Shown: positions 21,259-61,931 of the stretch, one piece after another | How positions within the stretch are numbered: the first letter of the stretch is position 1 | How the letters are laid out: every line of letters begins with the position of its first letter | Assembly: GCA_002309835.1 (NCBI GenBank) | Contig: DBYL01000019.1 | Location: 5,937-69,936, forward strand | Direction of reading: 5' to 3' | Length of the DNA: 64,000 nucleotides | Origin: Bacteroidales bacterium UBA1187 | Lineage (GTDB): Bacteria > Bacteroidota > Bacteroidia > Bacteroidales > Paludibacteraceae | Position numbers and translations under genes: made by a program | Notes under the pieces: model-generated | Told to the model about the DNA's origin: nothing | What the model saw: only the letters and a program-made list of their open reading frames with translations | Database searches by the model: none

Positions 21259-21297
21259 GGTTGTTCCTTGTTTGATGAGAACCTTTCTTTGCGACTG

Positions 21298-49183: not shown

Positions 49184-50085
49184 TGTCCTTGGTTTCTATC
49201 CTTCTGATTGTGATTGTCAACTATAATGTTGAGAATCTGTTTCACCCAAAGCATGATAGCATTGCTATCAACAATACTACGTGGGTAGAGAAGGATGATT
49301 ATGAATGGACGCCTGACGGAGATCGCCATTGGAGTTACAGCCGTTATTATCGCAAAGTGGAGAATATAGCACGCGTGCTGACGAATATCGGTGAGTGGCC
49401 AGGCGTGGATGTAGTGGGTTTGCAGGAAGTGGAGAATGCACTGTGTATCAAGCGTTTATGCCGAACACTTAGGCGTAATGAATATGATTTTGTACATTAC
49501 GAGAGTCCCGACAGACGCGGCATAGACGTAGCATTTATCTATAAGAAAGCACGCATAGACACGATCGCTACTAAGCCTCTAAGAGTAGATTTAGGCAAAG
49601 AGACAACGCGGGATATATTGTATGTCAGCGCTAAGATAGATCGTAAAGATACCATTCATTTCTTCGTCTGCCATCTGCCGAGTCAACGAGGCGGAGCGGC
49701 AGAAAGTCAATGGAAAAGAGACCAAGCAAAAAAGGTATTGCAAGACGCTATAGACTCGCTTTGTGCTATTCATCCAAATCCCCAAATCATCGTCATGGGG
49801 GATATGAATAGTAAGCCGCAGCAAGATCTTAATGGACTGAATAACAGGATGTTAACCATTAAGAATGGTGGTACACATAAGTATCAAGGCCAATGGACTT
49901 GCTTGGACCAATTCTATACCTCGCCGGCCTTGGATAGTATCAGTGATGTACGCATCTATGATGCGGAATGGATACAAGAGACGGATGAGAAATTTATGGG
50001 ATTAAAGCCCAAAAGGACCTATAATGGTTTTCACTATCAGAATGGTTTTTCGGACCACCTGCCGATTATTTTGAATATTCATTAA
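49183..50085 (+). CDS. Endonuclease/exonuclease/phosphatase (EEP) family protein
   Basis: EEP motifs NVENLF, GLQEVEN, GDMNS and SDHLP. Confidence 0.8.
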   Translation: MSLVSILLIVIVNYNVENLFHPKHDSIAINNTTWVEKDDYEWTPDGDRHWSYSRYYRKVENIARVLTNIGEWPGVDVVGLQEVENALCIKRLCRTLRRNEYDFVHYESPDRRGIDVAFIYKKARIDTIATKPLRVDLGKETTRDILYVSAKIDRKDTIHFFVCHLPSQRGGAAESQWKRDQAKKVLQDAIDSLCAIHPNPQIIVMGDMNSKPQQDLNGLNNRMLTIKNGGTHKYQGQWTCLDQFYTSPALDSISDVRIYDAEWIQETDEKFMGLKPKRTYNGFHYQNGFSDHLPIILNIH

Positions 50086-50096
50086 CACCAATTCAT

Positions 50097-52049
50097 ATGA
50101 AAAAAGTATTCTTTTTTGCAATCTTAGTAATGATGAGCATGATTAGTTGTACCAAACAGGAAAAGGCATTGTATGACGGAATTGTCTTTACAGATGAGCG
50201 CATGGAACGAGGCGTTAAACAAGCTGCGGCTCTGTGGCGTGAAGAAGATGGTTCCAAAGAAGAGTTTCAAGCTTTCGTAGCCCAAAACTACGCCAAGACG
50301 GAAGAGGAACGTACTGCGCTGTTCGAAAGCCTCAGCCGTATTATGGAAAAATTAAACGAAAGTGCTGATATTCTGACTGTTGAATTACTCAAACCCACCC
50401 AATTAACTAATGCAGGTGAGCCTACAGAAGTCGATTGGATTATGTCCGGTTATAGTGCTTCTGCACATGTGATAGATGATCTTTTTGCCAATAAAGTGGC
50501 CTTTATCACGATTCTTAATTTCCCTTTCTATACGCTTGAGGAAAAGAATACTTTAGGTACGCAATGGACGCGTCAACAATGGGCTGAGGCGCGCCTTGGA
50601 GATGTATTCACTGATCGTGTACCGGCAAAAGTACAGGCAAATATGGCGCAGACTTTTGTAAACGCAGAAAACTATATCGCAGATTATAATATCTGTATGG
50701 ATCGCTTGCGCACGGAAGATGGACGCCAACTCTTCCCGGATGGAATGACGCTGCTCAGTCACTGGAATCTGCGTGATGAACTGAAGGTAGATTATGATGC
50801 GCAAGAGAAGCAGGAGATGATCTATCAAGTGATGCAACATATTGTGCGTCAGACCATTCCGCAAGAAGTTATTAACAATCATGAACCGCTTTGGTATCCT
50901 TTCTCTAACCGTGTTGAGAACGGAGACTCCAAGCGTGAAGCGGATACGCGTTATCAGAAGATTCTGGATATCTTCCATGCTATGCAGCAGATGGATACGT
51001 ATTTTCCGAATATGCCTACTGGTATTATCCGTAATTTTGAAGGAGACATAGAGATTCCGGCTGATGAAGTAGAGCGCTTGTTTACGGAACTTATAAGTTC
51101 CGAGCAAGTAGGTATTGTGGCTGCGGAAATCAAAAATCGTTTAGGTCGAGACCTGCGTCCTTATGATATATGGTACGATGGTTTTAAAGCGCGCAGTGCT
51201 ATGAACGAAGATGAACTGAGTGCACAAACACGCAAACTCTATCCTACTCCTGAAGCATATCAGAAGCAGATTCCTTCTATGCTGCAGAACTTAGGCTTTA
51301 CCAAAGAAAATGCGGAAGAGATTGCCAGTCATATTATGGTAGAACCAGCGCGTGGTTCCGGTCATGCATGGCCTTGCGTAGGAAAAAATGAACCGGCACG
51401 TTTACGCACACGCATTTCAGAAAACGGCATGGATTATAAGGGGTATAATATTGCTGTTCATGAGATGGGTCATAATGTAGAAGAAGTGATAAGTCTCTAT
51501 AAGATGGACTATTACATGCTGCATGGAATACCTAATACTGGTTTTACCGAGACAAGTGCATTTCTATTCCAGCATCGTGATTTACAATTATTGGGTTACG
51601 GACGTCAGGAGATGGATAAAGAATCTATCTATGATCAGTTCTGGGGAATGTATGAGATAATGGGTGTTAGTTTGGTAGATATGCATGTTTGGCAATGGCT
51701 GTATGCGCACCCTAAAGCTACCGCAGCTGAATTGCGCGAAGCTACACTTGCTATTGCAGCAGATATATGGAATAAATATTATGAACCGGTTTTAGGAGAG
51801 AAAAACTGTGTATTATTAGCTATCTACAGCCATATGGTAAATAGTCCTATGTATCTGCCTAATTATCCTATCGGACATATTGTGCAATTCCAATTAGAAG
51901 AGGCACTGGCAAATACTACACCTTCACAATGGGCAGAGAAATATGAACGTTGGTATCGTTTGGGCCGTTTAACACCGGATGTATGGATGCAACAAGCTGT
52001 TAACGGAGAGTTATCCGTACAACCAATTTTAAGAAAAATAGAAAAATAA
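50097..52049 (+). CDS. Putative zinc metallopeptidase lipoprotein (HEMGH motif), family unassigned
   Basis: Lipobox SMISC|T and a single HExxH (VHEMGHNVEE). 650 aa, mostly helical-looking. Confidence 0.5.
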   Translation: MKKVFFFAILVMMSMISCTKQEKALYDGIVFTDERMERGVKQAAALWREEDGSKEEFQAFVAQNYAKTEEERTALFESLSRIMEKLNESADILTVELLKPTQLTNAGEPTEVDWIMSGYSASAHVIDDLFANKVAFITILNFPFYTLEEKNTLGTQWTRQQWAEARLGDVFTDRVPAKVQANMAQTFVNAENYIADYNICMDRLRTEDGRQLFPDGMTLLSHWNLRDELKVDYDAQEKQEMIYQVMQHIVRQTIPQEVINNHEPLWYPFSNRVENGDSKREADTRYQKILDIFHAMQQMDTYFPNMPTGIIRNFEGDIEIPADEVERLFTELISSEQVGIVAAEIKNRLGRDLRPYDIWYDGFKARSAMNEDELSAQTRKLYPTPEAYQKQIPSMLQNLGFTKENAEEIASHIMVEPARGSGHAWPCVGKNEPARLRTRISENGMDYKGYNIAVHEMGHNVEEVISLYKMDYYMLHGIPNTGFTETSAFLFQHRDLQLLGYGRQEMDKESIYDQFWGMYEIMGVSLVDMHVWQWLYAHPKATAAELREATLAIAADIWNKYYEPVLGEKNCVLLAIYSHMVNSPMYLPNYPIGHIVQFQLEEALANTTPSQWAEKYERWYRLGRLTPDVWMQQAVNGELSVQPILRKIEK

Positions 52050-52055
52050 TTTATT

Positions 52056-52529
52056 ATGGATATCTTTCTTTTAGTACTTGCATTTTTATGCATGCTGATA
52101 GGTATTATCGGCTGTATTATTCCTGGTTTGCCAGGTACACCTATTGCTTATATCGGATTATGGATAGCGCAGGCTACCACACGTATTGATTTTTCATGGC
52201 AGATGCTGTTAGTTTGGGGTATTATCACTATTATTGTATCTGTATTAGATTATATCGTGCCGGCATGGGGAACCAAACAATTCGGCGGTACTAAATATGG
52301 CATATGGGGAAGTACTATTGGCGTATTTGTAGGTTTGTTTTTTGGCGCAATAGGTGTTATTATCGGTCCGTTGGTAGGTGCTATACTCGGTGAAATGATA
52401 AACGGAAAGGAACTAAAAAAGGCTATCCGTGCCGGATGGGGAAGTTTTATAGGTATTTTAATGGGTACACTTATAAAAATAATATGCTGCGGCCTCATGA
52501 CCACAGCACTTATTAAAGCTATTTTATAA
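52056..52529 (+). CDS. Small polytopic membrane protein (DUF456-like)
   Basis: 157 aa with four Gly-rich hydrophobic segments. Confidence 0.45.
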   Translation: MDIFLLVLAFLCMLIGIIGCIIPGLPGTPIAYIGLWIAQATTRIDFSWQMLLVWGIITIIVSVLDYIVPAWGTKQFGGTKYGIWGSTIGVFVGLFFGAIGVIIGPLVGAILGEMINGKELKKAIRAGWGSFIGILMGTLIKIICCGLMTTALIKAIL

Positions 52530-52535
52530 ATTTTA

Positions 52536-53480
52536 CTAACTCATTTCCAACATACGTTGGATGGAAGAGATGGCCTTCTCGGCTGTCTCTTTTTTTACAA
52601 TCATCTCAGGCGCCTCGTTCAGCAAGCATTTATACACTTTCTCAAGCGTATTCATCCGCATATACTCGCATTCGTTACAACTACATCCTACGCCTTCTGT
52701 CACCTCTGGTGGAACAGGAATAAACTCCTTATCCGGACATGCACGTTGCATCTCAAAGAGAATTCCGCTTTCTGTAGCGATTATAAAGCGTTTGACGGGC
52801 GATTTGATTGTGTGCTCGAGCAATGCTTTCGTCGAACCTATTACGTCGCTCTGCGCGAGTATTGGCGCCTTACACTCAGGATGAGCAAGCACTTCTACAC
52901 CCGGATTATCTTTTTTAATTTGTAAAAGCGCCTCTAATGAAAAACGGCTATGCACATGACACGCACCGTTCCATAGAAGCATATTACGTCCCGTTACGGA
53001 ATTGATATACGATCCTAAGTTATGATCCGGACCGAAGATTATCTTAGCATCTGCAGGTAACTGATCTACTATCTTCTTGGCGTTAGACGAAGTCACCACT
53101 ACATCCGTCAGCGCTTTCACGTCTGCAGAGGTGTTTACATAACTAACCACCATATGATCCGGATGTTCGGCTTTGAAAGCTGCCAGGTCTTCTGCCTTAC
53201 AACTATCCGCTAACGAACAACCTGCATTCATATCCGGGATGAGCACTTTCTTATCCGGACAAAGGATTTTCATCGTCTCACCCATAAAATGCACGCCACA
53301 CATTATTAATATATCCGCCTGTACGCGCGTAGCCTGTTGCGCCAACGCTAAAGAATCACCGATGAAATCGGCTATTTCTTGTATTTCCGGTCTGGTATAA
53401 TAATGTGCGAAAATTACTGCATTCTTCTCCTTCGCTAAGGATTTAATTTTATCTATATATTCTTTACTTTTTAAATCCAT
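52536..53480 (-). CDS. nadA: Quinolinate synthase
   Basis: 314 aa. ...NAVIFAHYYTRPEIQEIADFIGDSL... with conserved Cys ligands (MNAGCSLADSC, ...CHVHSRF, ...VGCSCNECEYM). Confidence 0.85.
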   Translation of the reverse strand: MDLKSKEYIDKIKSLAKEKNAVIFAHYYTRPEIQEIADFIGDSLALAQQATRVQADILIMCGVHFMGETMKILCPDKKVLIPDMNAGCSLADSCKAEDLAAFKAEHPDHMVVSYVNTSADVKALTDVVVTSSNAKKIVDQLPADAKIIFGPDHNLGSYINSVTGRNMLLWNGACHVHSRFSLEALLQIKKDNPGVEVLAHPECKAPILAQSDVIGSTKALLEHTIKSPVKRFIIATESGILFEMQRACPDKEFIPVPPEVTEGVGCSCNECEYMRMNTLEKVYKCLLNEAPEMIVKKETAEKAISSIQRMLEMS

Positions 53481-53640
53481 GGATATGAATAGGTGTTGAA
53501 TTTGTTAATAAACCAACTAACTATTTGAAAATTGTACTTTTATGTGCGTTTTCTAATGTAATACGAATGTGGACTTTTTTAACAACTGCAACGTGGAACA
53601 GGTTTTAAACTGTGTAGCATGTACGTTGTTAACAATATGT

Positions 53641-54591
53641 TTATAACCACTTCTTTAGTCTGAAAATCAGTAAGATAACTACTACTGACATAATCATCAG
53701 ACCCAGTGCAAAAGCGTATCCGTATTCCCAATGCAGTTCAGGCATGAAGTCGAAGTTCATTCCATAGAGGCTACCAATCAACGTAGGCGGCAGGAAGATA
53801 ATATTGATGACCGTGAAGATCTTAATAATTCTGTTCTGCTCGATGTTTACCAAACCGAGGAAGGTATCCTGGAGGTAGTCCAGACGGTCAAATCCGAAAC
53901 GCGTGTAGTCAAAAAGCGAGTTAATATCCTTGATAATCATCGTCAAACGCGGATAGAGTTCCTCGGGGAAGAAATCGCACTTGAGAAAGTTACTGATAAC
54001 GCGTTGTTTATCCATGATGTTTTGACGGATGATGGTCACTTTTTCTTGCAAGTCCTTGATTTGTACCAGCAAGTCTTCATCTACGTGATCCGACTCCGCA
54101 TTGATCTGTTGGGAGAGTTCGGTAATCAAATCCGTGGTGTCCTCGATAAGGTCGGCATCCTTTTCTACTCGCGTCTCCATGAGCGCTACTAACACATGAA
54201 AGCCCGTCGGGAAATTACGGGTGTTGACAAATAATTTCTTAAATGTCTCGTTAAACGTATCCAACTCGTTATCACGTATGGATACGAGGATAGAGTTCTT
54301 AAGGATAAAGTTAACCGGCTCCGTCTCAAAGTTGTTTTTCAGGAAGTTGGAGTTCGCCACAATACTGTCATCCGTTTGGATATAACGGCTGGAGAACTCA
54401 ATCTCCTCCATCTCCTCGTCTTCCTGGATATCTATTTTTAGAAAACCCTCGAGCGTGTCCTCCGTCTTATCTGATACATCGAGCAGGTCAATCCAGATAA
54501 TATCTTTCTTATCGAGCTCTTTGAGAGCGGAGATGGTACGTGCTACCTTGATTTTCTCCTTGTCTTTGTAGAATATTTTGATTTCAGACAT
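53641..54591 (-). CDS. corA: CorA-family magnesium/cobalt transporter
   Basis: YGMNF signature followed by the second C-terminal TM. 316 aa. Confidence 0.85.
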   Translation of the reverse strand: MSEIKIFYKDKEKIKVARTISALKELDKKDIIWIDLLDVSDKTEDTLEGFLKIDIQEDEEMEEIEFSSRYIQTDDSIVANSNFLKNNFETEPVNFILKNSILVSIRDNELDTFNETFKKLFVNTRNFPTGFHVLVALMETRVEKDADLIEDTTDLITELSQQINAESDHVDEDLLVQIKDLQEKVTIIRQNIMDKQRVISNFLKCDFFPEELYPRLTMIIKDINSLFDYTRFGFDRLDYLQDTFLGLVNIEQNRIIKIFTVINIIFLPPTLIGSLYGMNFDFMPELHWEYGYAFALGLMIMSVVVILLIFRLKKWL

Positions 54592-55387
54592 GATTTTTTT
54601 CGATTAAAAGGGTTAATTCAATAAATTGTTCAACACTCAGCTGTTCGGGGCGCATTGTAAAAATCTTCTCTTCGAGGATGGGATTTCCCTTACCTACCAG
54701 CTGCTGAAGAGAATTGCGCATCTGTTTTCGTCGCTGGTTGAATGCAGTCTTGACGACCGTCTTAAACAACGCCTCGTTACATTCCAACCGTCGTCGTCGG
54801 TTCCGCGTCATGCGGATCACGGCCGACTTCACTTTTGGCGGCGGGTTGAACACATATTCATCTACTGTAAATAGATATTCTATATCATAATAGGCTTGTA
54901 ATAATACCGATAAAATACCATAGGCTTTCTTGCCAGGCTTGGAAGCCAACCGCTCGGCTACTTCCTTTTGAATCATTCCCGAGCAAACAGGTATACGGTC
55001 CTTGTAGTCCAGCACTTTAAAGAAAATCTGGCTACTGATATTATACGGATAGTTACCGATGACGTTGAATTCGCCTTCGGGCACAATCGTATTCAAATCA
55101 ATTTTGAGGAAATCTCCTTCTATCAAATCCAATTCCGGATACCACTCTTTGAGATAGGCAACGCTCTCGCGGTCAATCTCGATGGCCGTGAGCTGGATAG
55201 CTTTGTTTTGAAGGAGAAACTGGGTAAGAACGCCCATACCGGGACCAATCTCTAATGTGCGGCCCGAGGTGATGGTCTCAGCAATCTTGCGGGCGACGTT
55301 CAGGTCCGTCAAGAAGTGCTGCCCCAGAAATTTCTTTGCTCGTACGGTGTTCTCGCACGATTTTTTCTTGGCATGTACTTGTTGCAT
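54584..55387 (-). CDS. rsmA: 16S rRNA (adenine1518/1519-N6)-dimethyltransferase
   Basis: FLGQHFL N-terminal block and SAM motif LEIGPGMGVLT. 267 aa. Confidence 0.9.
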   Translation of the reverse strand: MQQVHAKKKSCENTVRAKKFLGQHFLTDLNVARKIAETITSGRTLEIGPGMGVLTQFLLQNKAIQLTAIEIDRESVAYLKEWYPELDLIEGDFLKIDLNTIVPEGEFNVIGNYPYNISSQIFFKVLDYKDRIPVCSGMIQKEVAERLASKPGKKAYGILSVLLQAYYDIEYLFTVDEYVFNPPPKVKSAVIRMTRNRRRRLECNEALFKTVVKTAFNQRRKQMRNSLQQLVGKGNPILEEKIFTMRPEQLSVEQFIELTLLIEKNHV

Positions 55388-55483
55388 TGTCCGCGTGATA
55401 ATCGTCCATAGATTGTGTTAATTTAGTTCAACTTTTCCCCGTTATTGCATAGCACAGGGAACCCTTCCGGGCTTTTGCGACTG

Positions 55484-55515
55484 CAAAAGTACTGCTTTTT
55501 TTTGACATACGCAAA
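55484..55515 (-). promoter_or_regulatory. Bacteroidota-type promoter for rsmA-corA
   Basis: Minus strand reads gTTTGcgtatgtcaaaaaaaagcagTActTTTG, with a 20-nt spacer. Confidence 0.6.
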
Positions 55516-55794
55516 CTTTTTAGTAATTTTTTACTAAAATATAGTATTTTCTATATTAATAATTAACTATTTAGCCATTTGGACTTGTACAAAAATGGCT
55601 ATGTAGGTAATTATAGATGAGTCTAACTCATTGTAAAAAAGTTGCTGAAAGTTTAGCGTAAGTAATACCTAAAATTTTATGAAACTTCGGAGGGACCCAC
55701 CCACAAGGGAAGGGGCGTGCCGAAGTACTCCGCAAACTTTTGCGCATTTTTTAGGCAAAATATAGCACATTCTCTAATTTTTTAATTCAAAAAC

Positions 55795-55825
55795 TTGCCT
55801 ATATCGGCAAAAAACAGTATCTTTG
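55795..55825 (+). promoter_or_regulatory. Bacteroidota-type promoter for the fic unit
   Basis: cTTGcctatatcggcaaaaaacagTAtcTTTG, with a 20-nt spacer, 31 nt upstream of the ATG. Confidence 0.6.
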
Positions 55826-55856
55826 CAGCGAATTTTGAATAAAACTTGCCGATATT

Positions 55857-56738
55857 ATGGAATATCTATCTGTTAGTCAATTTGCAGAAAAGTACGGAAT
55901 GAGCGTTCGAACCGCTCGAAATCTTTGCGCCACAGGGAAGATAAAAGGTGTCTTCTTAACCGGTAAAACATGGAATATACCTGCAGATTCTGTGTTGCCA
56001 CAGAAGAGAAAGCAGAAAATATCTCCGCTTTTACAACGGCTGCGTGAAGAAAAAGAGACTAAATTGCATGGCGGTATCTATCATCGTACGCAGATTGATT
56101 TAACCTATAATTCCAACCACATAGAAGGCTCGCGTTTAACCAAAGAGCAGACGCGATATATCTTTGAAACCAACACATTAGGTGTTACCAGTGAGAGTAC
56201 AAGGATTGATGATATCATAGAAACCATCAATCACTTCCGTTGTATTGATTTTGTTATAGACCATGCGATGGATAAAATCACCGAACCGTTTATCAAGCAG
56301 TTGCATTTAATACTCAAATCCAATACTGCTGATAGTCAAAAACCATGGTTTGCTGTCGGGGATTACAAACGCTTGGCGAATGAAGTTGGTGATAGAGAGA
56401 CTGTCCAACCTCAGGATGTGCATAACCACATGAAGGTGTTGCTTTCGGACTATAATGCGCTCAAAGAAGTAGAATTCGATAACATCCTTGATTTTCACGT
56501 TCGCTTTGAGCGTATTCATCCATTTCAAGATGGTAATGGACGTGTAGGACGTTTACTTTTATTATGGCAATGCCTGCAAAATGGGATAGTACCTTTTATC
56601 ATCACCGATGAATTACGACTATTCTATTATAGAGGCCTTCAAAATTGGGGAGAAACCAACGGCTACTTGCGCGACACTTGCCTTACCGCGCAAGATCAAT
56701 TCACCGCCTTGCTGAATTATTTTAAAATCAAATACTAA
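55857..56738 (+). CDS. Fic-family protein (AMPylase type) with N-terminal helix-turn-helix and intramolecular inhibitory motif
   Basis: Fic motif HPFQDGNGRVGR (56517-56552). Upstream S-x-x-x-E-G (SNHIEG, 56112-56129) matches the published (S/T)xxxE(G/N) inhibitory helix. The N-terminus YLSVSQFAEKYGMSVRTARNLCATGKIKG looks like an excisionase/MerR-type HTH. Confidence 0.85.
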   Translation: MEYLSVSQFAEKYGMSVRTARNLCATGKIKGVFLTGKTWNIPADSVLPQKRKQKISPLLQRLREEKETKLHGGIYHRTQIDLTYNSNHIEGSRLTKEQTRYIFETNTLGVTSESTRIDDIIETINHFRCIDFVIDHAMDKITEPFIKQLHLILKSNTADSQKPWFAVGDYKRLANEVGDRETVQPQDVHNHMKVLLSDYNALKEVEFDNILDFHVRFERIHPFQDGNGRVGRLLLLWQCLQNGIVPFIITDELRLFYYRGLQNWGETNGYLRDTCLTAQDQFTALLNYFKIKY

Positions 56739-56762
56739 AAATATTTTAATTTATTATTGCTT

Positions 56763-57455
56763 ATGAAAAACATATTAGCAAAATTCACAGGTGCCACTGA
56801 GGTGTCTGATATTGAGGGAAAAGAGGTAATTCTTAATCAACAGTTTTGTGAGATGGCAAAAGAATTGCTTTATGGTGGCTATTTTTTGGTAGATGAGAAA
56901 AAGAAAATCTATCTGGATGATATTGAATTTTACTATCATGAAGAAGGAGACGGTAGATTAAAAGATCCGATAATGTATCATACTAATGACCATGAAGGAA
57001 AGGAACTGCCATATTATGGACTCGGAAGGTTGAATTTGCACATTTCAGGTATAGACGTTACCTTTGAGAATGAAGAAAAACATTATCGTGCATCTTTCCT
57101 CATCCGTGGTTTTCATGTGAATGAAGGGGAATACGATGATTGTTCAACCCATATATATGACGAGTTACTATATATGGGAGTCCCATTTGATAAATCCATA
57201 GAAATAGAATGGATAAATATGGATTTGCCAGGAAAAGAGAACTATCGACCAAAAGAAGGAGAACGACGTTATAACGTACCAGCAGAAGAGCACTTTAAAA
57301 TAAACGCGAAAGGCAAGTATGAAAAATATACGCAAATAACAACAATTCCTTCGCTCGAGGCTAAAGAATACTTTAAAGCATCTAATAAGGTATATAAACG
57401 CTGCGATCGTCCATGGCGTTTTTATAAACCAGGATTACCTATGAAAAAAATCTAA
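56763..57455 (+). CDS. Divergent AAG/Mpg-like (3-methyladenine DNA glycosylase fold) protein, tentative
   Basis: Start set at ATG 56763. Ordered resemblance to recalled AAG/Mpg blocks: ELLYGGYFLV (LLG..LV), DDIEFYYH...DPIMYH (ETEAY..D.A.H), YRASFLIRG (AVLLRA) and the C-terminal RPWRFYKPGLP (KPLRFYVRGSP). Low overall identity; not verified. Confidence 0.45.
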   Translation: MKNILAKFTGATEVSDIEGKEVILNQQFCEMAKELLYGGYFLVDEKKKIYLDDIEFYYHEEGDGRLKDPIMYHTNDHEGKELPYYGLGRLNLHISGIDVTFENEEKHYRASFLIRGFHVNEGEYDDCSTHIYDELLYMGVPFDKSIEIEWINMDLPGKENYRPKEGERRYNVPAEEHFKINAKGKYEKYTQITTIPSLEAKEYFKASNKVYKRCDRPWRFYKPGLPMKKI

Positions 57456-57458
57456 TCA

Positions 57459-57481
57459 AGAGGACTCAGTCCTCTTTTTTT
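57459..57481 (+). terminator. Intrinsic terminator after the AAG-like gene
   Basis: AGAGGAC-tca-GTCCTCT followed by TTTTTT, 4 nt after the stop codon. Confidence 0.75.
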
Positions 57482-57529
57482 ATGCTTAATAACTACTCCT
57501 AAACTTTTAACAAACTTTAATATAAAATT

Positions 57530-57561
57530 TTTGGAATCCTCCGAAAAAGCATATACCTTTG
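57530..57561 (+). promoter_or_regulatory. Bacteroidota-type promoter for the deiminase-like unit
   Basis: tTTTGgaatcctccgaaaaagcataTAccTTTG, with a 20-nt spacer. Confidence 0.6.
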
Positions 57562-57609
57562 CGCCGAAAAGTTAAATAACTTATTTATTAACAATTAATT
57601 GCAAAGAAT

Positions 57610-59082
57610 ATGATACATGATTCACAGACTGATTTAGTCTTTCTTCCGAAAGCTCTTCGTCTTCATTTTCCTCGCCTTTACAAAAGCCTCATCGCAGCGC
57701 TTGAATTAACACACGTCAAGTATCGGGAGATTCCTTACACAGATTCTAAAACTCGTTTATGGGTGCGCGACTGGATGCCGATTTTGGTTGACAAAACCGG
57801 CAGTATGGAACAATTGGAATACGACCCTGACTACTTGCGTGCACCGCGCTACGCCAAGTATAAACCAGACATGGTCTATATATTGGACGAAATGGGTATC
57901 ACTCCTTTTCATAATAACATCATCGTGGACGGAGGAAATATTCTATCGGACAAGAAAGGTCGCGTGTATATGACGGATAAAGTCTTCTTGGAGAACGCAC
58001 ATATACCACGTGAGCAACTCATTAACTACCTTAAACAAATTCTCAACACACGCTCCATCCATTTCCTGCATTGGGACAAATCCGATATGTATGGTCACGT
58101 GGACGGAATGATGGCTATTACGGATGATGGCACGCCTATTACCGACCTTAGTTGGGAATACCTCAATTTCCTGCGCGTAGGCAATAAAATATTCATGGCG
58201 CAACTCGGCAAACCATCCGATGCACCTGCCTTCAAACGTATTCAAGAGGCTTTTCCTCACTGTATCGTATATCCGATTCAGCATGTGCAATCCCTCACTC
58301 GGCTTGGCGGAGGACTACATTGCGCTACTTGGAACACCGTTGAAAAATGTTATCAAAACGCAAAAGTTTTCAAACCATCCAAACGTCATCCGTTTAACCC
58401 ATTTACGTCAGATGCCATGTCTGACGAGCGCCTGCGCGCGGTCGTTGAATATTCTCACGGACAGCCTTTAGAGGATAGCGAATGGGATGCCCTATTAAAT
58501 GCTTTTTATACATGGAGCGGAGAATGGTTAAATTCTGAACTCTCCTATCGTGAAATGGTGAAGTCTATTTACGCAACCTTATCCGAACAGCAGCTTCCGT
58601 TCTTCGAAGACCATGATTTCGTAGAAACCCTTTGCAATCATCTCTATAGCTACCTTATTGACATCCCAAAACTTTTTATTCTGGAAAATAGCAAATGGGA
58701 CTCCGGTTGTATCTATTATCCAACTGTTCATTTCAAGGACACAGATGCTTTGCTTACATCTTTCGAAATGAAGTTTGGATACCGTGAAATGAGTTATCTT
58801 GAGGAAATGATAATAACCGAAACGGTTGAAGAAGAAGCGAAGAAGACCGTTAACCGCGAAAAAGGCATTGTATATGTGCTCTATTACAAGAACGACAAGC
58901 GTCGCGTTTGTCCTCATAGATACACCTTTACAGCCTGCAAAGGCGATACGCACATTAAAGTTATCATGTATTGGGATTCACCTATTACCAACCTGCCCAT
59001 CTCCAAATATGCTCAACAAGCATGCTTCGATATTTCGTTCTTTGAAAATTGTGTAAAAGATGATTCCAACATGCCATTTTAA
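57610..59082 (+). CDS. Agmatine-deiminase/PAD-like (guanidino-group modifying enzyme) domain fused to an unknown C-terminal domain
   Basis: Residues 1-245 carry the GME catalytic set in order: WVRDWMP, VDGGN, GHVDG and GGGLHCATWN (Cys codon at 58321-58323). Residues 246-490 (58345-59079) have no motif I recognise. Confidence 0.65.
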   Translation: MIHDSQTDLVFLPKALRLHFPRLYKSLIAALELTHVKYREIPYTDSKTRLWVRDWMPILVDKTGSMEQLEYDPDYLRAPRYAKYKPDMVYILDEMGITPFHNNIIVDGGNILSDKKGRVYMTDKVFLENAHIPREQLINYLKQILNTRSIHFLHWDKSDMYGHVDGMMAITDDGTPITDLSWEYLNFLRVGNKIFMAQLGKPSDAPAFKRIQEAFPHCIVYPIQHVQSLTRLGGGLHCATWNTVEKCYQNAKVFKPSKRHPFNPFTSDAMSDERLRAVVEYSHGQPLEDSEWDALLNAFYTWSGEWLNSELSYREMVKSIYATLSEQQLPFFEDHDFVETLCNHLYSYLIDIPKLFILENSKWDSGCIYYPTVHFKDTDALLTSFEMKFGYREMSYLEEMIITETVEEEAKKTVNREKGIVYVLYYKNDKRRVCPHRYTFTACKGDTHIKVIMYWDSPITNLPISKYAQQACFDISFFENCVKDDSNMPF

Positions 59083-59083
59083 T

Positions 59084-59263
59084 ATGAAACCCGAATACGT
59101 TGATGAAATGAGCCTCGACGAAGTGACCGCCATCAAACACAAAGCCGCGTGTGTTTGGAAATTAGTAGGCAGCAATTATTCAAAAGAGCAATTAGACAAA
59201 TATTGTTCTCTTTATGGCATCACACCCGAACAAGCACTCCAATGGAAATACTATTGGTTATAA
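59084..59263 (+). CDS. Small hypothetical protein (59 aa)
   Basis: ATG lies 2 nt after the preceding stop (MKPEYVDEMSLDEV...). Helical-looking and Trp/Tyr-rich at the C-terminus. The ORF-track start at 59060 overlaps the previous gene. Confidence 0.35.
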   Translation: MKPEYVDEMSLDEVTAIKHKAACVWKLVGSNYSKEQLDKYCSLYGITPEQALQWKYYWL

Positions 59264-59318
59264 ACACAAATCACAATTAAAACCGACGGGGCGATGGGAT
59301 ATAACAGCCGCAAAATGT

Positions 59319-59969
59319 ATGAAAAAGTTACTTTCAATTTTAATCGTAATGATGTCGCTTTCAGCGATTTGTAATGCCGAAGAATATAATTTTGAGGATT
59401 ATATTTATCCCTTTGGCAATCGGACATTTAACACCTTGGACGCTAACGGAAAAACGATTTCCATGAGTGAATATAGCTTCCAATCCGAGTATTATGACAA
59501 TTATATTGTCGAAGAAGTGTATATCGGCATGGGAATGCAGTCCGCAACAAATTATTATCGCTATCGTATAGTAGATAATGCCGTTGTTTCCGACCTTCAA
59601 ATCATGCGGAATAAGTTAACCGGAAGCACCAAATATCAAGACAAAAGAACGCTTTTTGCTTTCCCGGGTGAAGACAAACCCTATACATGGTCTGAAACAG
59701 AAAAAGACCAGAAAATAGACGGCAAATCCGAATATGTTTTCGTCATGTTCTTGGGGGCAAAAGTAAAAGCCGTAAAAATTACGGAGAACATTACTTACAT
59801 TGTGAATAATGTGAAGCACAAGCACCAAAGGAAAAGTTATTGGATAGAAGGTTACGGACGAGTGGTCACGTACTATCGCATGGAAGACGGTAAAGAGCGT
59901 ATTCAGTCTATCGCCGAAATGCCTGTTGCATTTTACGGCGTAACCGAGATTTCTTCTCCGGCAAAGTAA
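59319..59969 (+). CDS. Exported hypothetical protein (216 aa)
   Basis: Start moved to ATG 59319, giving a clean signal peptide MKKLLSILIVMMSLSAICNA|EE. Beta-rich, Tyr-rich sequence with no known motif. Confidence 0.5.
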   Translation: MKKLLSILIVMMSLSAICNAEEYNFEDYIYPFGNRTFNTLDANGKTISMSEYSFQSEYYDNYIVEEVYIGMGMQSATNYYRYRIVDNAVVSDLQIMRNKLTGSTKYQDKRTLFAFPGEDKPYTWSETEKDQKIDGKSEYVFVMFLGAKVKAVKITENITYIVNNVKHKHQRKSYWIEGYGRVVTYYRMEDGKERIQSIAEMPVAFYGVTEISSPAK

Positions 59970-60219
59970 ACGCAAAATAGACATTATTGTATATAGGTTT
60001 CATAGGGATTGCCTCCGAGATTACCCCGTAATAACCCCGACTCGATTCTCTCTCGATTCTGTCTCGCCAGTCTGATTTTGATATATAATCCTGCAATCGG
60101 CGGCGGGTGCGCATAAGGGTAAGTGTTGAGGCGGATGCAGGGCGGAACGTATCATCCTATACCCTATATATACTTTAGTATATATCCCGTGATTTTGAAA
60201 TATTTATATTTGCAAATTA

Positions 60220-60235
60220 TTTGCATATATGCAAA
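60220..60235. repeat. 16-nt perfect palindrome TTTGCATATATGCAAA (copy 1)
   Basis: Self-complementary 16-mer, preceded by the 8-nt palindrome TTTGCAAA at 60209-60216. Confidence 0.8.
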
Positions 60236-60251
60236 ATTTTTCGTACCTTTG
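60220..60251 (+). promoter_or_regulatory. Bacteroidota-type promoter for the gtrA-like gene
   Basis: aTTTGcatatatgcaaaatttttcgTAccTTTG, with a 20-nt spacer. The -33 region is part of the 16-nt palindrome TTTGCATATATGCAAA. Confidence 0.6.
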
Positions 60252-60269
60252 CAGCCGCAAAAGTAAAAG

Positions 60270-60842: not shown

Positions 60843-61931
60843 ATGTTACACACCTTATGCTCCAACCTCCATACAGAGGTATCCGGTATGCCTTTCAAGG
60901 TAGCGGATTCGTTTCTCAATGAAAATCAAGTGATTGCGGTTCTTTCCGGAGGAACGGAAGCGCAGTTCATAGATCTAATCAGACAGAAGAAGATTGACCT
61001 CAAGCGCCCTGTTTATCTGATGGTCAGCGAGTATAGCAACTCGTTGCCTGCAGCGCTGGAGATCCTGAGTTTCATCCGTCAGCGTGACGGCTTGGCGAAG
61101 ATCATGCAGAATGCCGCTGATACAGCCTTCCCGGATCCGAGTGAGACTGACTCGTTGACGCGCGTGCCGCTGGCTAAAGTGCTGAAGAACGAGAAGAAGT
61201 TGCGTCTGGGTGTAATAGGTATGCCTTCCGACTGGCTCATCGCTTCGAGTGTGGATTACAAAGAGGTGCTCAAAGAGATGAACTGCGAGTTGATAGATAT
61301 CCCATTCACGGAGCTCTCTAGCCTTGGCGAAGTAGACCCGGGAATGAAGGGTGCTGAGGCTATCTACGAGCGCCTCAAAGAGATCATCGCAAAGAATAAA
61401 CTGGACGGAATCACCGTGCGTTGCTTTGACCTCTTCAAGACCGTTAAGAATACCGGTTGTATCGCTATCAGCAAACTCAATGACGAGGGTATTCCTGCCG
61501 GCTGCGAGAGCGATATCCCTGTGCTGCTGACGAAGATCGCTTGTAAGCAACTGACTGGCGAACTTGGCTTTATGGGCAACCCTGCGCGTATCCAACCGGA
61601 TGGCCAGATCTTGCTGGCGAAATGTACTATTCCGTTGAGCATGACCGAGAACCATGAGTTCACCACGCATTTCGAATCGGGTATCGGTGTCGCCATTCAT
61701 GGCGAAGTACCTGCTGGTGACTACACATTGGTAAAACTCAGCCACGACATGAAGCGTCTCTTGGCGGTTAATGTTACCGTTACGCACTGCCAGTATGAGA
61801 AGAACATGTGCCGCACGCAAATATGGATCCAAACGACGCCAATCGTAAGCCAGTACTTGCTTACCTCGCCGATTGCGAACCACCATATTCTCATCAAGGG
61901 CCATCATGCCGCTAAATTCTGGAGAGACTAA
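60843..61931 (+). CDS. Hypothetical cytoplasmic protein (362 aa), possibly sugar-isomerase-like
   Basis: Long ORF with normal composition, 27 nt after the predicted promoter -7 box. No motif I can name with confidence. The antisense 310-aa ORF is a shadow. Confidence 0.5.
   Translation: MLHTLCSNLHTEVSGMPFKVADSFLNENQVIAVLSGGTEAQFIDLIRQKKIDLKRPVYLMVSEYSNSLPAALEILSFIRQRDGLAKIMQNAADTAFPDPSETDSLTRVPLAKVLKNEKKLRLGVIGMPSDWLIASSVDYKEVLKEMNCELIDIPFTELSSLGEVDPGMKGAEAIYERLKEIIAKNKLDGITVRCFDLFKTVKNTGCIAISKLNDEGIPAGCESDIPVLLTKIACKQLTGELGFMGNPARIQPDGQILLAKCTIPLSMTENHEFTTHFESGIGVAIHGEVPAGDYTLVKLSHDMKRLLAVNVTVTHCQYEKNMCRTQIWIQTTPIVSQYLLTSPIANHHILIKGHHAAKFWRD

Follow-up and report, generated by a model that had tools for sequence, protein, structure and literature searches.

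In a 64,000-nt stretch of DNA from the Bacteroidales bacterium UBA1187 (DBYL01000019.1; hereafter the window, to which all coordinates refer), the segment 55516-60219 between rsmA and gtrA is an insertion, and two of its five genes, encoding a protein called p2 and a deiminase-like enzyme, form the core of a mosaic cassette that is widespread in gut Bacteroidales and not a one-off. Neither p2 nor its pairing with a deiminase was found in Pfam, NCBIfam, PADLOC or the searchable literature. The cassette, which appears to be undescribed, makes a good candidate for a new system of conflict or defence. From its composition and genomic context we infer, tentatively and as a serious possibility that falls somewhat short of a probability, that this mosaic accessory cassette functions as a nucleic-acid-directed conflict module.

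All five island genes lie on the forward strand. The first (55857-56738) encodes a 293-aa protein with HTH_17 and Fic domains, as read from Pfam and the list of open reading frames (ORFs). The products of the second to fifth genes are named p2 to p5, and the genomic loci and proteins with which they were compared carry L and P numbers, respectively. The gene for p2 (56763-57455; 230 aa, no Pfam domain) begins 24 nt after the Fic gene. It is followed by p3 (57610-59082), a 490-aa fusion whose first ~243 residues match the PAD_porph domain and whose remainder has no known relatives; by p4 (59084-59263; 59 aa), which starts at stop+2 of p3 in the +1 frame; and by p5 (59319-59969; 216 aa), which has a signal-like N-terminus and is predicted to be exported. 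These ORFs are as described in the initial annotation of this DNA, down to the 24-nt gap and the stop+2 start.

The p2-deiminase core and its variants

Homologues of p2 numbered 368 in a word-indexed search and 459 clusters at 50% identity in an exhaustive profile search, none with a Pfam domain. A scan of one genome per species placed p2 in at least 124 GTDB species. Almost all of these carry the label Bacteroidales or Bacteroidia, among them Phocaeicola plebeius DSM 17135, Bacteroides cellulosilyticus DSM 14838, Segatella copri and S. paludivivens; two p2 contigs carry the labels Methanobrevibacter or Anaerotignum. Pairing was counted at the 77 GTDB loci with an intact p2 ORF, of which nine are cut by a contig end and 68 are informative. 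A deiminase-like gene of ~275 aa is adjacent to p2 and co-directional with it, in either order, at 40 of the 77 loci, lies within 5 kb of it at 10 further loci, and is missing from 18; that is, the two are paired in 50 of the 68 informative loci. They are also fused in both orders (deiminase-p2 in P0278, p2-deiminase in P0338), with another fusion in P0072. Adjacency, together with fusion in both orders, shows that p2 and the deiminase are functional partners.

Larger parts of the island recur in relatives at other chromosomal sites. A locus downstream of glmS (L172) has the order Fic (316 aa), p2, an M48-like protein, a 53-aa ORF, a p3/p4 fusion and p5, and a locus between POR and lepA (L177) has Fic (316 aa), p2, p3, p4 and p5. 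A variant between the rpsF operon and pulA (L174) comprises an LRR protein, a p2-like protein, an M48-like protein, a short deiminase, p4 and p5. Whether the five families co-localise in other genomes, a check proposed in the initial annotation, is thus answered by L172 and L177, in which they do so in the same order. The proposed five-gene module stands as a set that is not due to chance; as a unit it gives way to a hierarchy, in which p2 and the deiminase form the core and p4, the M48-like peptidase, p5 and Fic are clade-specific additions. The division into two transcription units parts the two core partners, and the operon structure therefore does not define the module. The M48-like HExxH peptidase (~263 aa) belongs to the cassette in L007, L015, L044, L172 and L174. 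A Kinase-PolyVal protein lies in or beside the cassette in L014 and L086.

Other partners take the place of the deiminase in some relatives. In seven loci (L019-L021, L027, L028, L031 and L033), which include Phocaeicola plebeius DSM 17135, Bacteroides mediterraneensis and Segatella paludivivens, p2 is fused to an N-terminal PD-(D/E)xK-like domain in a protein of 421-430 aa. This domain matches SMEK_N at 1e-5, just below the cut-off (25-26 bits against 27), and carries traces of Mrr_cat and UPF0102. No deiminase lies within the 10-kb flanks of these loci, three of whose contigs end less than 1 kb from p2, and in L019-L021 an Mrr_cat gene follows the fusion. The combination of PD-(D/E)xK-p2 with Mrr_cat looks like a putative Type IV restriction-like variant, to judge from its domains. 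Type IV restriction joins a nuclease to a reader, and these p2 relatives, fused to PD-(D/E)xK and followed by Mrr_cat, have a similar layout; by contrast, the p2 of the window has no nuclease and a deiminase occupies the effector position, and the nuclease matches of the relatives are themselves below the cut-off. In one further protein p2 is fused to an RlaP nucleotidyltransferase, and an RNase T-like exonuclease follows the p2-deiminase pair in six loci.

Exchange of cassette parts at a conserved intergenic block

The island is a patchwork of parts of different age. A block that contains p2 (56753-57585, forward strand) is 98.3% identical in DNA to L172:1708-2540 (834 nt; blastn), and p2 is 98.7% identical as protein; between the same two loci, p3-p5 share ~77% DNA identity, the C-terminal half of p3 is 53% identical, and the Fic proteins are unrelated (28%). 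These values indicate a recent cassette exchange of the p2 block between islands at different chromosomal sites. The exchange breakpoint coincides with the p2-p3 spacer, and the alignments show a swapping of cassette parts by recombination at this conserved intergenic block.

The spacer opens with an intrinsic terminator (57458-57483, forward strand), in which an 8-pair stem, AAGAGGAC/GTCCTCTT (57458-57476), is followed by a T-run; a scan thus recovered the terminator that had been noticed by eye after p2. The hairpin is kept in 15 aligned loci, with no pair changed on both sides. A structured-RNA reading of the spacer was dropped, because RNAalifold found the terminator only, without covariation, and the Rfam scan of the island returned sub-threshold noise only. 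Behind the terminator lies a candidate operator/promoter block (57484-57581, forward strand) that comprises AATAACT (57488-57494), the tandem elements TTTTAACA (57505-57512) and CTTTAATA (57515-57522), a -33 element TTTG (57530-57533) and a candidate p3 promoter -7 box, TACCTTTG (57554-57561). The TTTAAC(A) repeats are spaced one helical turn apart. The -7 consensus of Bacteroidetes is TAnnTTTG, and the p3 box, read from the letters, is of this type, as is the box TATCTTTG (55818-55825), read by eye against the consensus, in the candidate Fic-p2 promoter (55795-55825, forward strand); a promoter ahead of each transcription unit, as first proposed, is accordingly borne out at the level of -7 boxes. 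A sigma-70 promoter scan, which is unsuited to Bacteroidetes and gave fewer matches than shuffled sequences, was set aside.

The p2-p3 spacer is 75-94% identical at the nucleotide level in 24 loci in which the flanking proteins share only 30-60%. The tandem motif occurs 46 times in 2.34 Mb, in 42 cases no more than 1.2 kb from a cassette gene. The regulatory block was found in the window, L002-L016, L090, L172-L179 and, as weaker spacer copies beside deiminase or p2 genes (nhmmer; upstream where compared by eye), in 17 more distant loci. The block is read as a putative DNA operator/promoter for a regulator, and the block itself would double as a recombination joint.

The spread of the cassette to three other chromosomal sites implies movement by recombination. 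In searches for p2, neither PLSDB plasmids nor IMG/VR gave a match, and phage entries of GenBank yielded only one 5.5-kb 'UNVERIFIED' phage contig. The cassette is therefore regarded as chromosomal host cargo, and a phage or plasmid origin is unsupported.

The insertion site between rsmA and gtrA

Look-ups of the exact RsmA and GtrA proteins revealed no other contexts, and the site was compared in 80 metagenomic loci encoding relatives of the window's RsmA. In at least 12 relatives (RsmA 72-91% identical; L092, L094, L099, L103, L106, L109, L111, L112 and L115-L118), rsmA and gtrA are directly adjacent and divergent, with 60-350 bp between them, and alignment to these empty sites places the junctions of the island at ~55506-55516 and ~60216. 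The island also differs from its surroundings in composition: GC content is 0.389 in 55516-60219 against 0.476 in the whole window, the lowest of all 4704-nt stretches, and GC at third codon positions is 0.29-0.45 in the five island genes against 0.54-0.63 in corA, rsmA, gtrA, the 362-aa gene behind gtrA and fba. The initial annotation had called the island clearly AT-rich and foreign-looking, and both descriptions hold (GC 38.9 against 47.6%, a shift at third positions, and a site that is empty in most close relatives); its estimate of ~50% GC for both flanks fits the right flank (50%) and fails for the left (42%). As had also been stated there, neither a tRNA nor a flanking direct repeat was found at the island, and no domain of an integrase or transposase.

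Four relatives carry other inserts at the same place. That of L095 (7.3 kb) encodes a large 1313-aa protein with only weak, sub-threshold Ig/PKD matches, that of L104 (5.7 kb) encodes WG-repeat and Big_2 proteins, that of L107 (3.5 kb) encodes a different Fic protein (PDC-S72) and a 343-aa protein of no assigned family, and L097 has an insert of 1.4 kb. The rsmA/gtrA site is thus a general insertion hot spot. On the left, the segment 55506-55753 is 93% identical over 252 nt to the sequence beside rsmA in L107, and on the right, 59981-60037 is 77% identical over 57 nt to the sequence just downstream of the L107 cargo. Both island ends are therefore common to L107, and the cargo appears to have been exchanged between conserved boundary segments.

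The outermost signals belong to the host site. The island of exactly 4704 nt is enclosed by 44-nt inverted arms (73% complementary), which are the divergent rsmA and gtrA promoters. The left arm (55472-55515, reverse strand) holds the rsmA promoter (-7 TACTTTTG, -33 TTTG), is not cargo, and aligns at 88-97% to the empty sites of L099, L103 and L112; the right arm (60220-60263, forward strand) holds the gtrA promoter (-33 TTTG, -7 TACCTTTG) and likewise aligns to empty sites. Next to the left arm, a 46-nt direct repeat (55510-55555 and 55731-55776, 74% identity) flanks a 221-nt segment with a hairpin of stem CTTCGG...CCGAAG, and an analogous duplicated insert occupies the same position near rsmA in L092; the segment 55510-55776 may be a small mobile or regulatory element.

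A site flanked by core genes, with alternative cargo, low GC and no integrase, resembles the hot spots and defence islets that lack mobility genes, from which it differs in that its cargo includes surface-protein genes, so that it is not dedicated to defence. A site of this kind could in principle have gathered five unrelated, strain-specific genes that form no module, as its varied cargo (WG-repeat proteins, Ig-like surface proteins, another Fic) and the terminator between the two transcription units of the island would allow. Such an explanation is hardly credible, and is already contradicted by the adjacency of p2 and deiminase in 50 of 68 loci and their fusion in both orders; the same gene order at three other chromosomal sites and the conservation of a cassette-specific regulatory block also speak against it.

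The deiminase domain of p3 and its C-terminal half

The N-terminal half of p3 (57610-58338, forward strand) is a minimal domain of the guanidino-group-modifying (pentein) type. It matches PAD_porph (PF04371) at 4.1e-23 and 82.6 bits (gathering cut-off 25), and profile searches match it to agmatine deiminases in the PDB (2ewo, 2.8e-12). Its motifs are WVRD (57760-57771), DGGN (57928-57939), GHVDG (58093-58107) and GGGLHC (58306-58323, with Cys238). W51-x-R53-D54, D107-G-G-N110, G162-H163-x-D165-G and C238 are kept in 44 of 44 aligned p2-linked short deiminases; among the 46 long forms, H163 and D165 never vary, while at least 90% have D54 and C238. Given this full conservation of catalytic residues, the p2-linked deiminases are predicted to be active guanidino/amidino hydrolases. 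The p3 family shares with agmatine deiminase and the Porphyromonas-type PAD the Pfam match, Trp-x-Arg-Asp, Gly-His-x-Asp and the Cys; it differs from them in the size of the domain (only ~245-280 aa), in its partnership with p2 and, in the window copy, in the fusion to a half of 247 aa. Its DGGN and C-x-[ST]-W presumably replace the motifs that we take to be canonical for PF04371. The ~56 full-length homologues of p3 come almost all from metagenomic or metagenome-assembled genome (MAG) assemblies.

The C-terminal half (58339-59082, forward strand; ~247 aa plus stop) evolves fast. The identities of the N- and C-terminal halves to their counterparts in relatives are 81/53 (L172), 89/62, 86/62, 75/49, 72/39 and 72/36%. 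In the structure model (predicted local distance difference test score, pLDDT, 78; predicted template modelling score, pTM, 0.48) it comprises a helical and an alpha/beta subdomain, the former of which L007 also encodes separately, in a gene of 93 aa. L015 and L044 have a 266-aa gene between p2 and the deiminase, which had been considered as a free C-terminal half and was ruled out (hhalign probability 0.7%); it encodes the M48-like peptidase.

The Fic gene

The Fic protein matches Pfam Fic at 2.9e-15 (57.3 bits, cut-off 24) and HTH_17 at 1.9e-5, and among PADLOC models PDC-S04 at 2e-107 (355.9 bits) and SoFic at 1.6e-19. The catalytic motif HPFQDGNGRVGR (residue 221, 56517-56552) fits HxFx(D/E)GNGRxxR, and an inhibitory-helix motif of the (S/T)xxxE(G/N) type, SNHIEG, stands at residue 86; by these motifs the protein is a predicted Fic enzyme of the class II autoinhibited type. 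The model match, the canonical catalytic motif and the N-terminal inhibitory motif are what it shares with PDC-S04 and SoFic. It differs from them in its co-transcription with p2 and in being swapped in sister islands for a non-orthologous Fic, those of L172 and L177 being only 28% identical to it. PDC-S04 is itself only a candidate single-gene phage defence, listed in the literature from PADLOC output.

Fic proteins of other kinds accompany p2 as well: six Prevotella-type loci (L009, L029, L035, L036, L038 and L041) have a RhuM-Fic gene a short way upstream of p2, and a further copy is found in L042, on the downstream side of the pair. In most p2-deiminase loci Fic is absent. Fic is therefore a recurrent but replaceable companion of the cassette.

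This company raises the possibility of a protein-directed abortive-infection or toxin module, in which the deiminase would citrullinate arginines of a host or phage protein beside Fic and an M48-like protease, with p2 as sensor or adaptor. The family of the enzyme (PF04371) takes its name from peptidyl-arginine and agmatine deiminases, three different Fic families occur immediately ahead of p2 or in the same hot spot, and both RhuM-Fic (in the six loci and L042) and the M48-like HExxH protein (in its five loci) recur. The explanation is credible although rather unlikely, as p2 also has nucleases and a nucleotidyltransferase as fused or paired partners, and in six loci the pair is followed by the RNase T-like exonuclease, both of which point to nucleic acids. 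A weak likeness of p2 to AAG/Mpg also speaks against it, and Fic and M48 are absent from most p2-deiminase loci.

The small protein p4 and the exported protein p5

Homologues of p4, 57-80% identical, directly follow the deiminase in L002, L007, L009, L010, L014, L015, L044 and L172-L179, and P0008, P0055 and L172 have p4 as an in-frame fusion with the deiminase. It is thus a real small protein or domain. The stop+2 spacing is kept in diverged loci (L002, L173, L177 and L179), and the position of the start suggests a possible translational coupling to p3. The N-terminus of p5, MKKLLSILIVMMSLSAICNA, resembles by eye a signal or lipoprotein sequence. The 64 homologues of p5 have no Pfam domain, and the only named one comes from Paludibacteraceae. 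The protein follows the deiminase and p4 in all of seven inspected loci (L172 and L174-L179), and in L181 (6001-7951) a 50%-identical homologue lies 5 nt upstream of the gene for a 425-aa deiminase protein, with no p2 nearby. In this 425-aa protein, a linker joins a hydrophobic helix at the N-terminus, presumably a membrane anchor, to a short deiminase domain; the flanking genes are the housekeeping genes tilS, rho and prfC. In the Paludibacteraceae clade, p5 is therefore a deiminase partner. Its absence, and that of Fic, from 80 GTDB p2 loci had led to both being taken for unrelated passengers, a view that was reversed by L172, L174, L177 and L181.

Small ORFs (p4, and those of 53 and 93 aa in relatives), a peptidase and an exported protein occur together in these cassettes, and lasso peptides are known to be tailored by peptidyl-arginine deiminases of bacteria (bioRxiv 10.1101/2020.07.16.207027), which offer a precedent for a modified secreted peptide or protein. 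Here p4, another short ORF or p5 would be the substrate, and the deiminase, the M48-like peptidase and p2 the tailoring enzymes. This is highly improbable: the p4 of the window has no arginine and is conserved along its whole length, with no division into leader and core, several relatives have p4 fused to the enzyme, no ABC transporter for export or maturation is conserved, and most p2-deiminase loci have neither a small ORF nor p5.

The tight linkage of a predicted exported p5 to the deiminase, including the presumed membrane-anchored form amid housekeeping genes, could also point to a small-molecule pathway, in which the deiminase and p2 would carry out consecutive steps on a guanidino compound, for example an arginine analogue from the diet or from microbes, an amine resembling agmatine or a guanidino antibiotic, with p5 as an exported binding protein. 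Two enzymes that are found fused in both orders typically catalyse successive steps of metabolism, many flanks are housekeeping, and the cassette is absent from plasmids and viral contigs. Set against this, no transporter or further pathway enzyme is conserved beside the pair; the links to nucleases, RlaP, Mrr, Fic and toxin-type genes are hard to explain; the fast evolution of the C-terminal half and the shuffling would be unusual for metabolism; and p3 reaches only 49.2 bits, with partial coverage, in the agmatine deiminase AguA equivalog TIGR03380, whose cut-off is 381.8. A small-molecule role is accordingly unlikely.

A proposed nucleic-acid-directed conflict module

The combination of a constant p2 with swappable enzymes, a fast-evolving appendage, shuffling, occurrence in variable regions and low GC argues for a conflict system, and the links to nuclease, nucleotidyltransferase and exonuclease, together with the AAG-like signal in p2, favour a nucleic-acid target. 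In the model that we prefer, the mosaic cassette would have entered the interval between the divergent rsmA and gtrA promoters, a hot spot of recombination, and the island would combine an autoinhibited HTH-Fic AMPylase of the PDC-S04 type with a multi-gene module whose core is p2 and a Cys-His-Asp deiminase. The target-recognition subunit would be p2, most likely a base-binding protein of the AAG/Mpg-like glycosylase type, to judge from a Glu-x-Tyr motif, an Arg and a C-terminal RF motif that are kept in the AAG register. Its effectors would be interchangeable: the deiminase in most cases, PD-(D/E)xK plus Mrr in Phocaeicola and some Bacteroides, and RlaP in one fusion. In the window, p2 would select the target, and a guanidino or amidino group on it would be hydrolysed by the deiminase. 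Specificity or localisation would be tuned by the C-terminal half of p3, by p4 and by the exported p5. As a whole, the system would act against phage or mobile elements and would be switched on via the tandem TTTAAC operator.

The likeness of p2 to AAG/Mpg, proposed in the initial annotation, is the part of this model that was examined most closely. Across the family, E55, F56, Y57, H59, K67, Y72, H73, H93, S95, G96, D98, Y108, R109, R115, R169 and W218 are invariant. The comparison used a human AAG sequence identical to PDB 1F4R and nine annotated bacterial Mpg genes from plasmids, by means of hhalign and HMMER. A divergent p2-like subfamily of 212 aa (L007 and L174), related to p2 with 85% hhalign probability (phmmer ~1e-8), aligns with Mpg at 65.8% probability (E 5.7e-5) over the core from ETEAY to LIRALE, against 0.5% for a reversed control. 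An Mpg hidden Markov model (HMM), run on 313 p2-family and 710 length-matched control proteins (1023 in total), ranked 13 p2-family proteins first and placed 29 in the top 40 (hypergeometric P ~1e-6, the sequences being mutually related); the ranking is a family-level signal and not an independent test. A permissive alignment sets E55, Y57, R115 and W-R-F of p2 on E125, Y127, R182 and L-R-F of AAG, and the motif pairs IEFYYH/VETEAY, FLIR/LLRA, RxNV/RVGV and WRF/LRF, although they differ from one p2 member to the next, always come in the same order. The claim thus keeps the motif register, the HMM rank and the subfamily match, and loses the support that Pfam, fold comparison and a direct profile comparison might have lent it; AAG ancestry of p2 is plausible but unproven, as is its membership in PF02245.

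Several observations weigh against the preferred model. None of 60 p2-family members matches PF02245 at E <=10, and the p2 family profile aligns with Mpg at only 0.5-0.7% hhalign probability. Although the p2 model is a confident one (AlphaFold; pLDDT 92.9, pTM 0.90), Foldseek gave no significant match in the PDB (best E 0.31, template modelling score, TM, <=0.15), and no AAG structure is among the 50 matches listed. To our knowledge, pentein enzymes act on arginine, agmatine and related guanidines and not on nucleic acids. Fic, the M48-like peptidase and a PAD-like enzyme are protein modifiers, for which a protein-directed explanation fits equally well. The predicted export of p5 would be unusual for a cytoplasmic nucleic-acid-directed system, as would the helix of the L181 deiminase. 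Furthermore, no model of PADLOC-DB v2 matches p2, the deiminase, the M48-like protein, p4 or p5, and many cassette neighbours are plain housekeeping genes.

Other database searches were in keeping with an undescribed family. Profile searches of p2 against PDB sequences, a set that contains the AAG entries 1F4R, 1EWN, 1BNK and 3QI5, returned nothing, and in the BFVD the p2 model matched only two uncharacterised giant-virus proteins (Foldseek, TM 0.42). For the C-terminal half of p3, Foldseek likewise gave no significant PDB match, and p2, this half, p4 and p5 had no match in Pfam, NCBIfam or PADLOC. The PADLOC run and fold search called for at the outset therefore left only Fic with a match (PDC-S04): the statement that the island fits no named system has to be given up for Fic (PDC-S04, SoFic) and is retained for the other four proteins. 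Cassettes lie in variable regions beside nucleases, genes of the toxin or abortive-infection kind and further Fic/Doc genes; the neighbours include RhuM-Fic, YhcG, PDDEXK_9, Mrr_cat, GIY-YIG, WYL-WCX, HipA_C, AbiEii, Kinase-PolyVal, Sel1 and vWA proteins. A Pfam survey of 150 neighbour families found, among the top 25 families listed, a mix of housekeeping and conflict genes. Literature searches on deiminase- or pentein-based defence, citrullinating toxins and polymorphic toxins gave nothing relevant.

DNA glycosylases are known to act as antiviral defences (PMC11078745; bioRxiv 10.1101/2025.10.29.685425). Brig1 (PMC11078745), Dag and Brig2 (bioRxiv 10.1101/2025.10.29.685425) are encoded by small accessory genes in variable regions and excise bases of modified phage DNA, and p2, likened to them by description only, could act in the same way; the p2 module differs from them in needing a partner enzyme and in having extra components. 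No mention of AAG, alkyladenine, 3-methyladenine or deiminase was found in the preprint (bioRxiv 10.1101/2025.10.29.685425). It is tempting to take the comparison further and to suppose a 'deiminate-and-excise' immunity, in which the pentein enzyme would be a nucleobase deiminase and p2 an AAG-derived glycosylase. The deiminase would act, for example, on archaeosine-type 7-deazaguanines, 2-aminoadenine or adenine/guanine in nucleic acid, and p2 would flip and excise the product or the substrate, under a dedicated operator and sometimes together with Fic and an exported partner. So specific a scheme is quite doubtful. If it were true, the guanidino-modifying superfamily would gain its first member directed at nucleic acids, and gut Bacteroidales would be shown to have a new class of defence system.

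The broader assignment to a defence or conflict system, if true, would add guanidino/amidino hydrolysis as a new enzymatic logic in prokaryotic immunity, and this logic would be found in dominant bacteria of the human and ruminant gut. The cassette offers handles for experiment: two small enzymes with the predicted catalytic residues E55 and C238, natural fusions, a series of swapped parts and a defined operator.

Neighbouring genes and other features

The left flank (50000-55500) lies below the window average in GC and dips to 36% at ~51750-52500 and 53250-53750; further atypical segments are possible to the left of corA. The 362-aa gene after gtrA (60843-61931) has no Pfam domain and is kept beside gtrA in relatives; its sole match is to the NCBIfam sulfoquinovose isomerase (5e-8), far under the cut-off. 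A palindrome, TTTGC(R)NN(Y)GCAAA, stands just downstream of the -7 boxes of three promoters in the window, at 21288 (a promoter at ~21.3 kb), 55474 (rsmA) and 60248 (gtrA), and may be a shared leader hairpin or operator.

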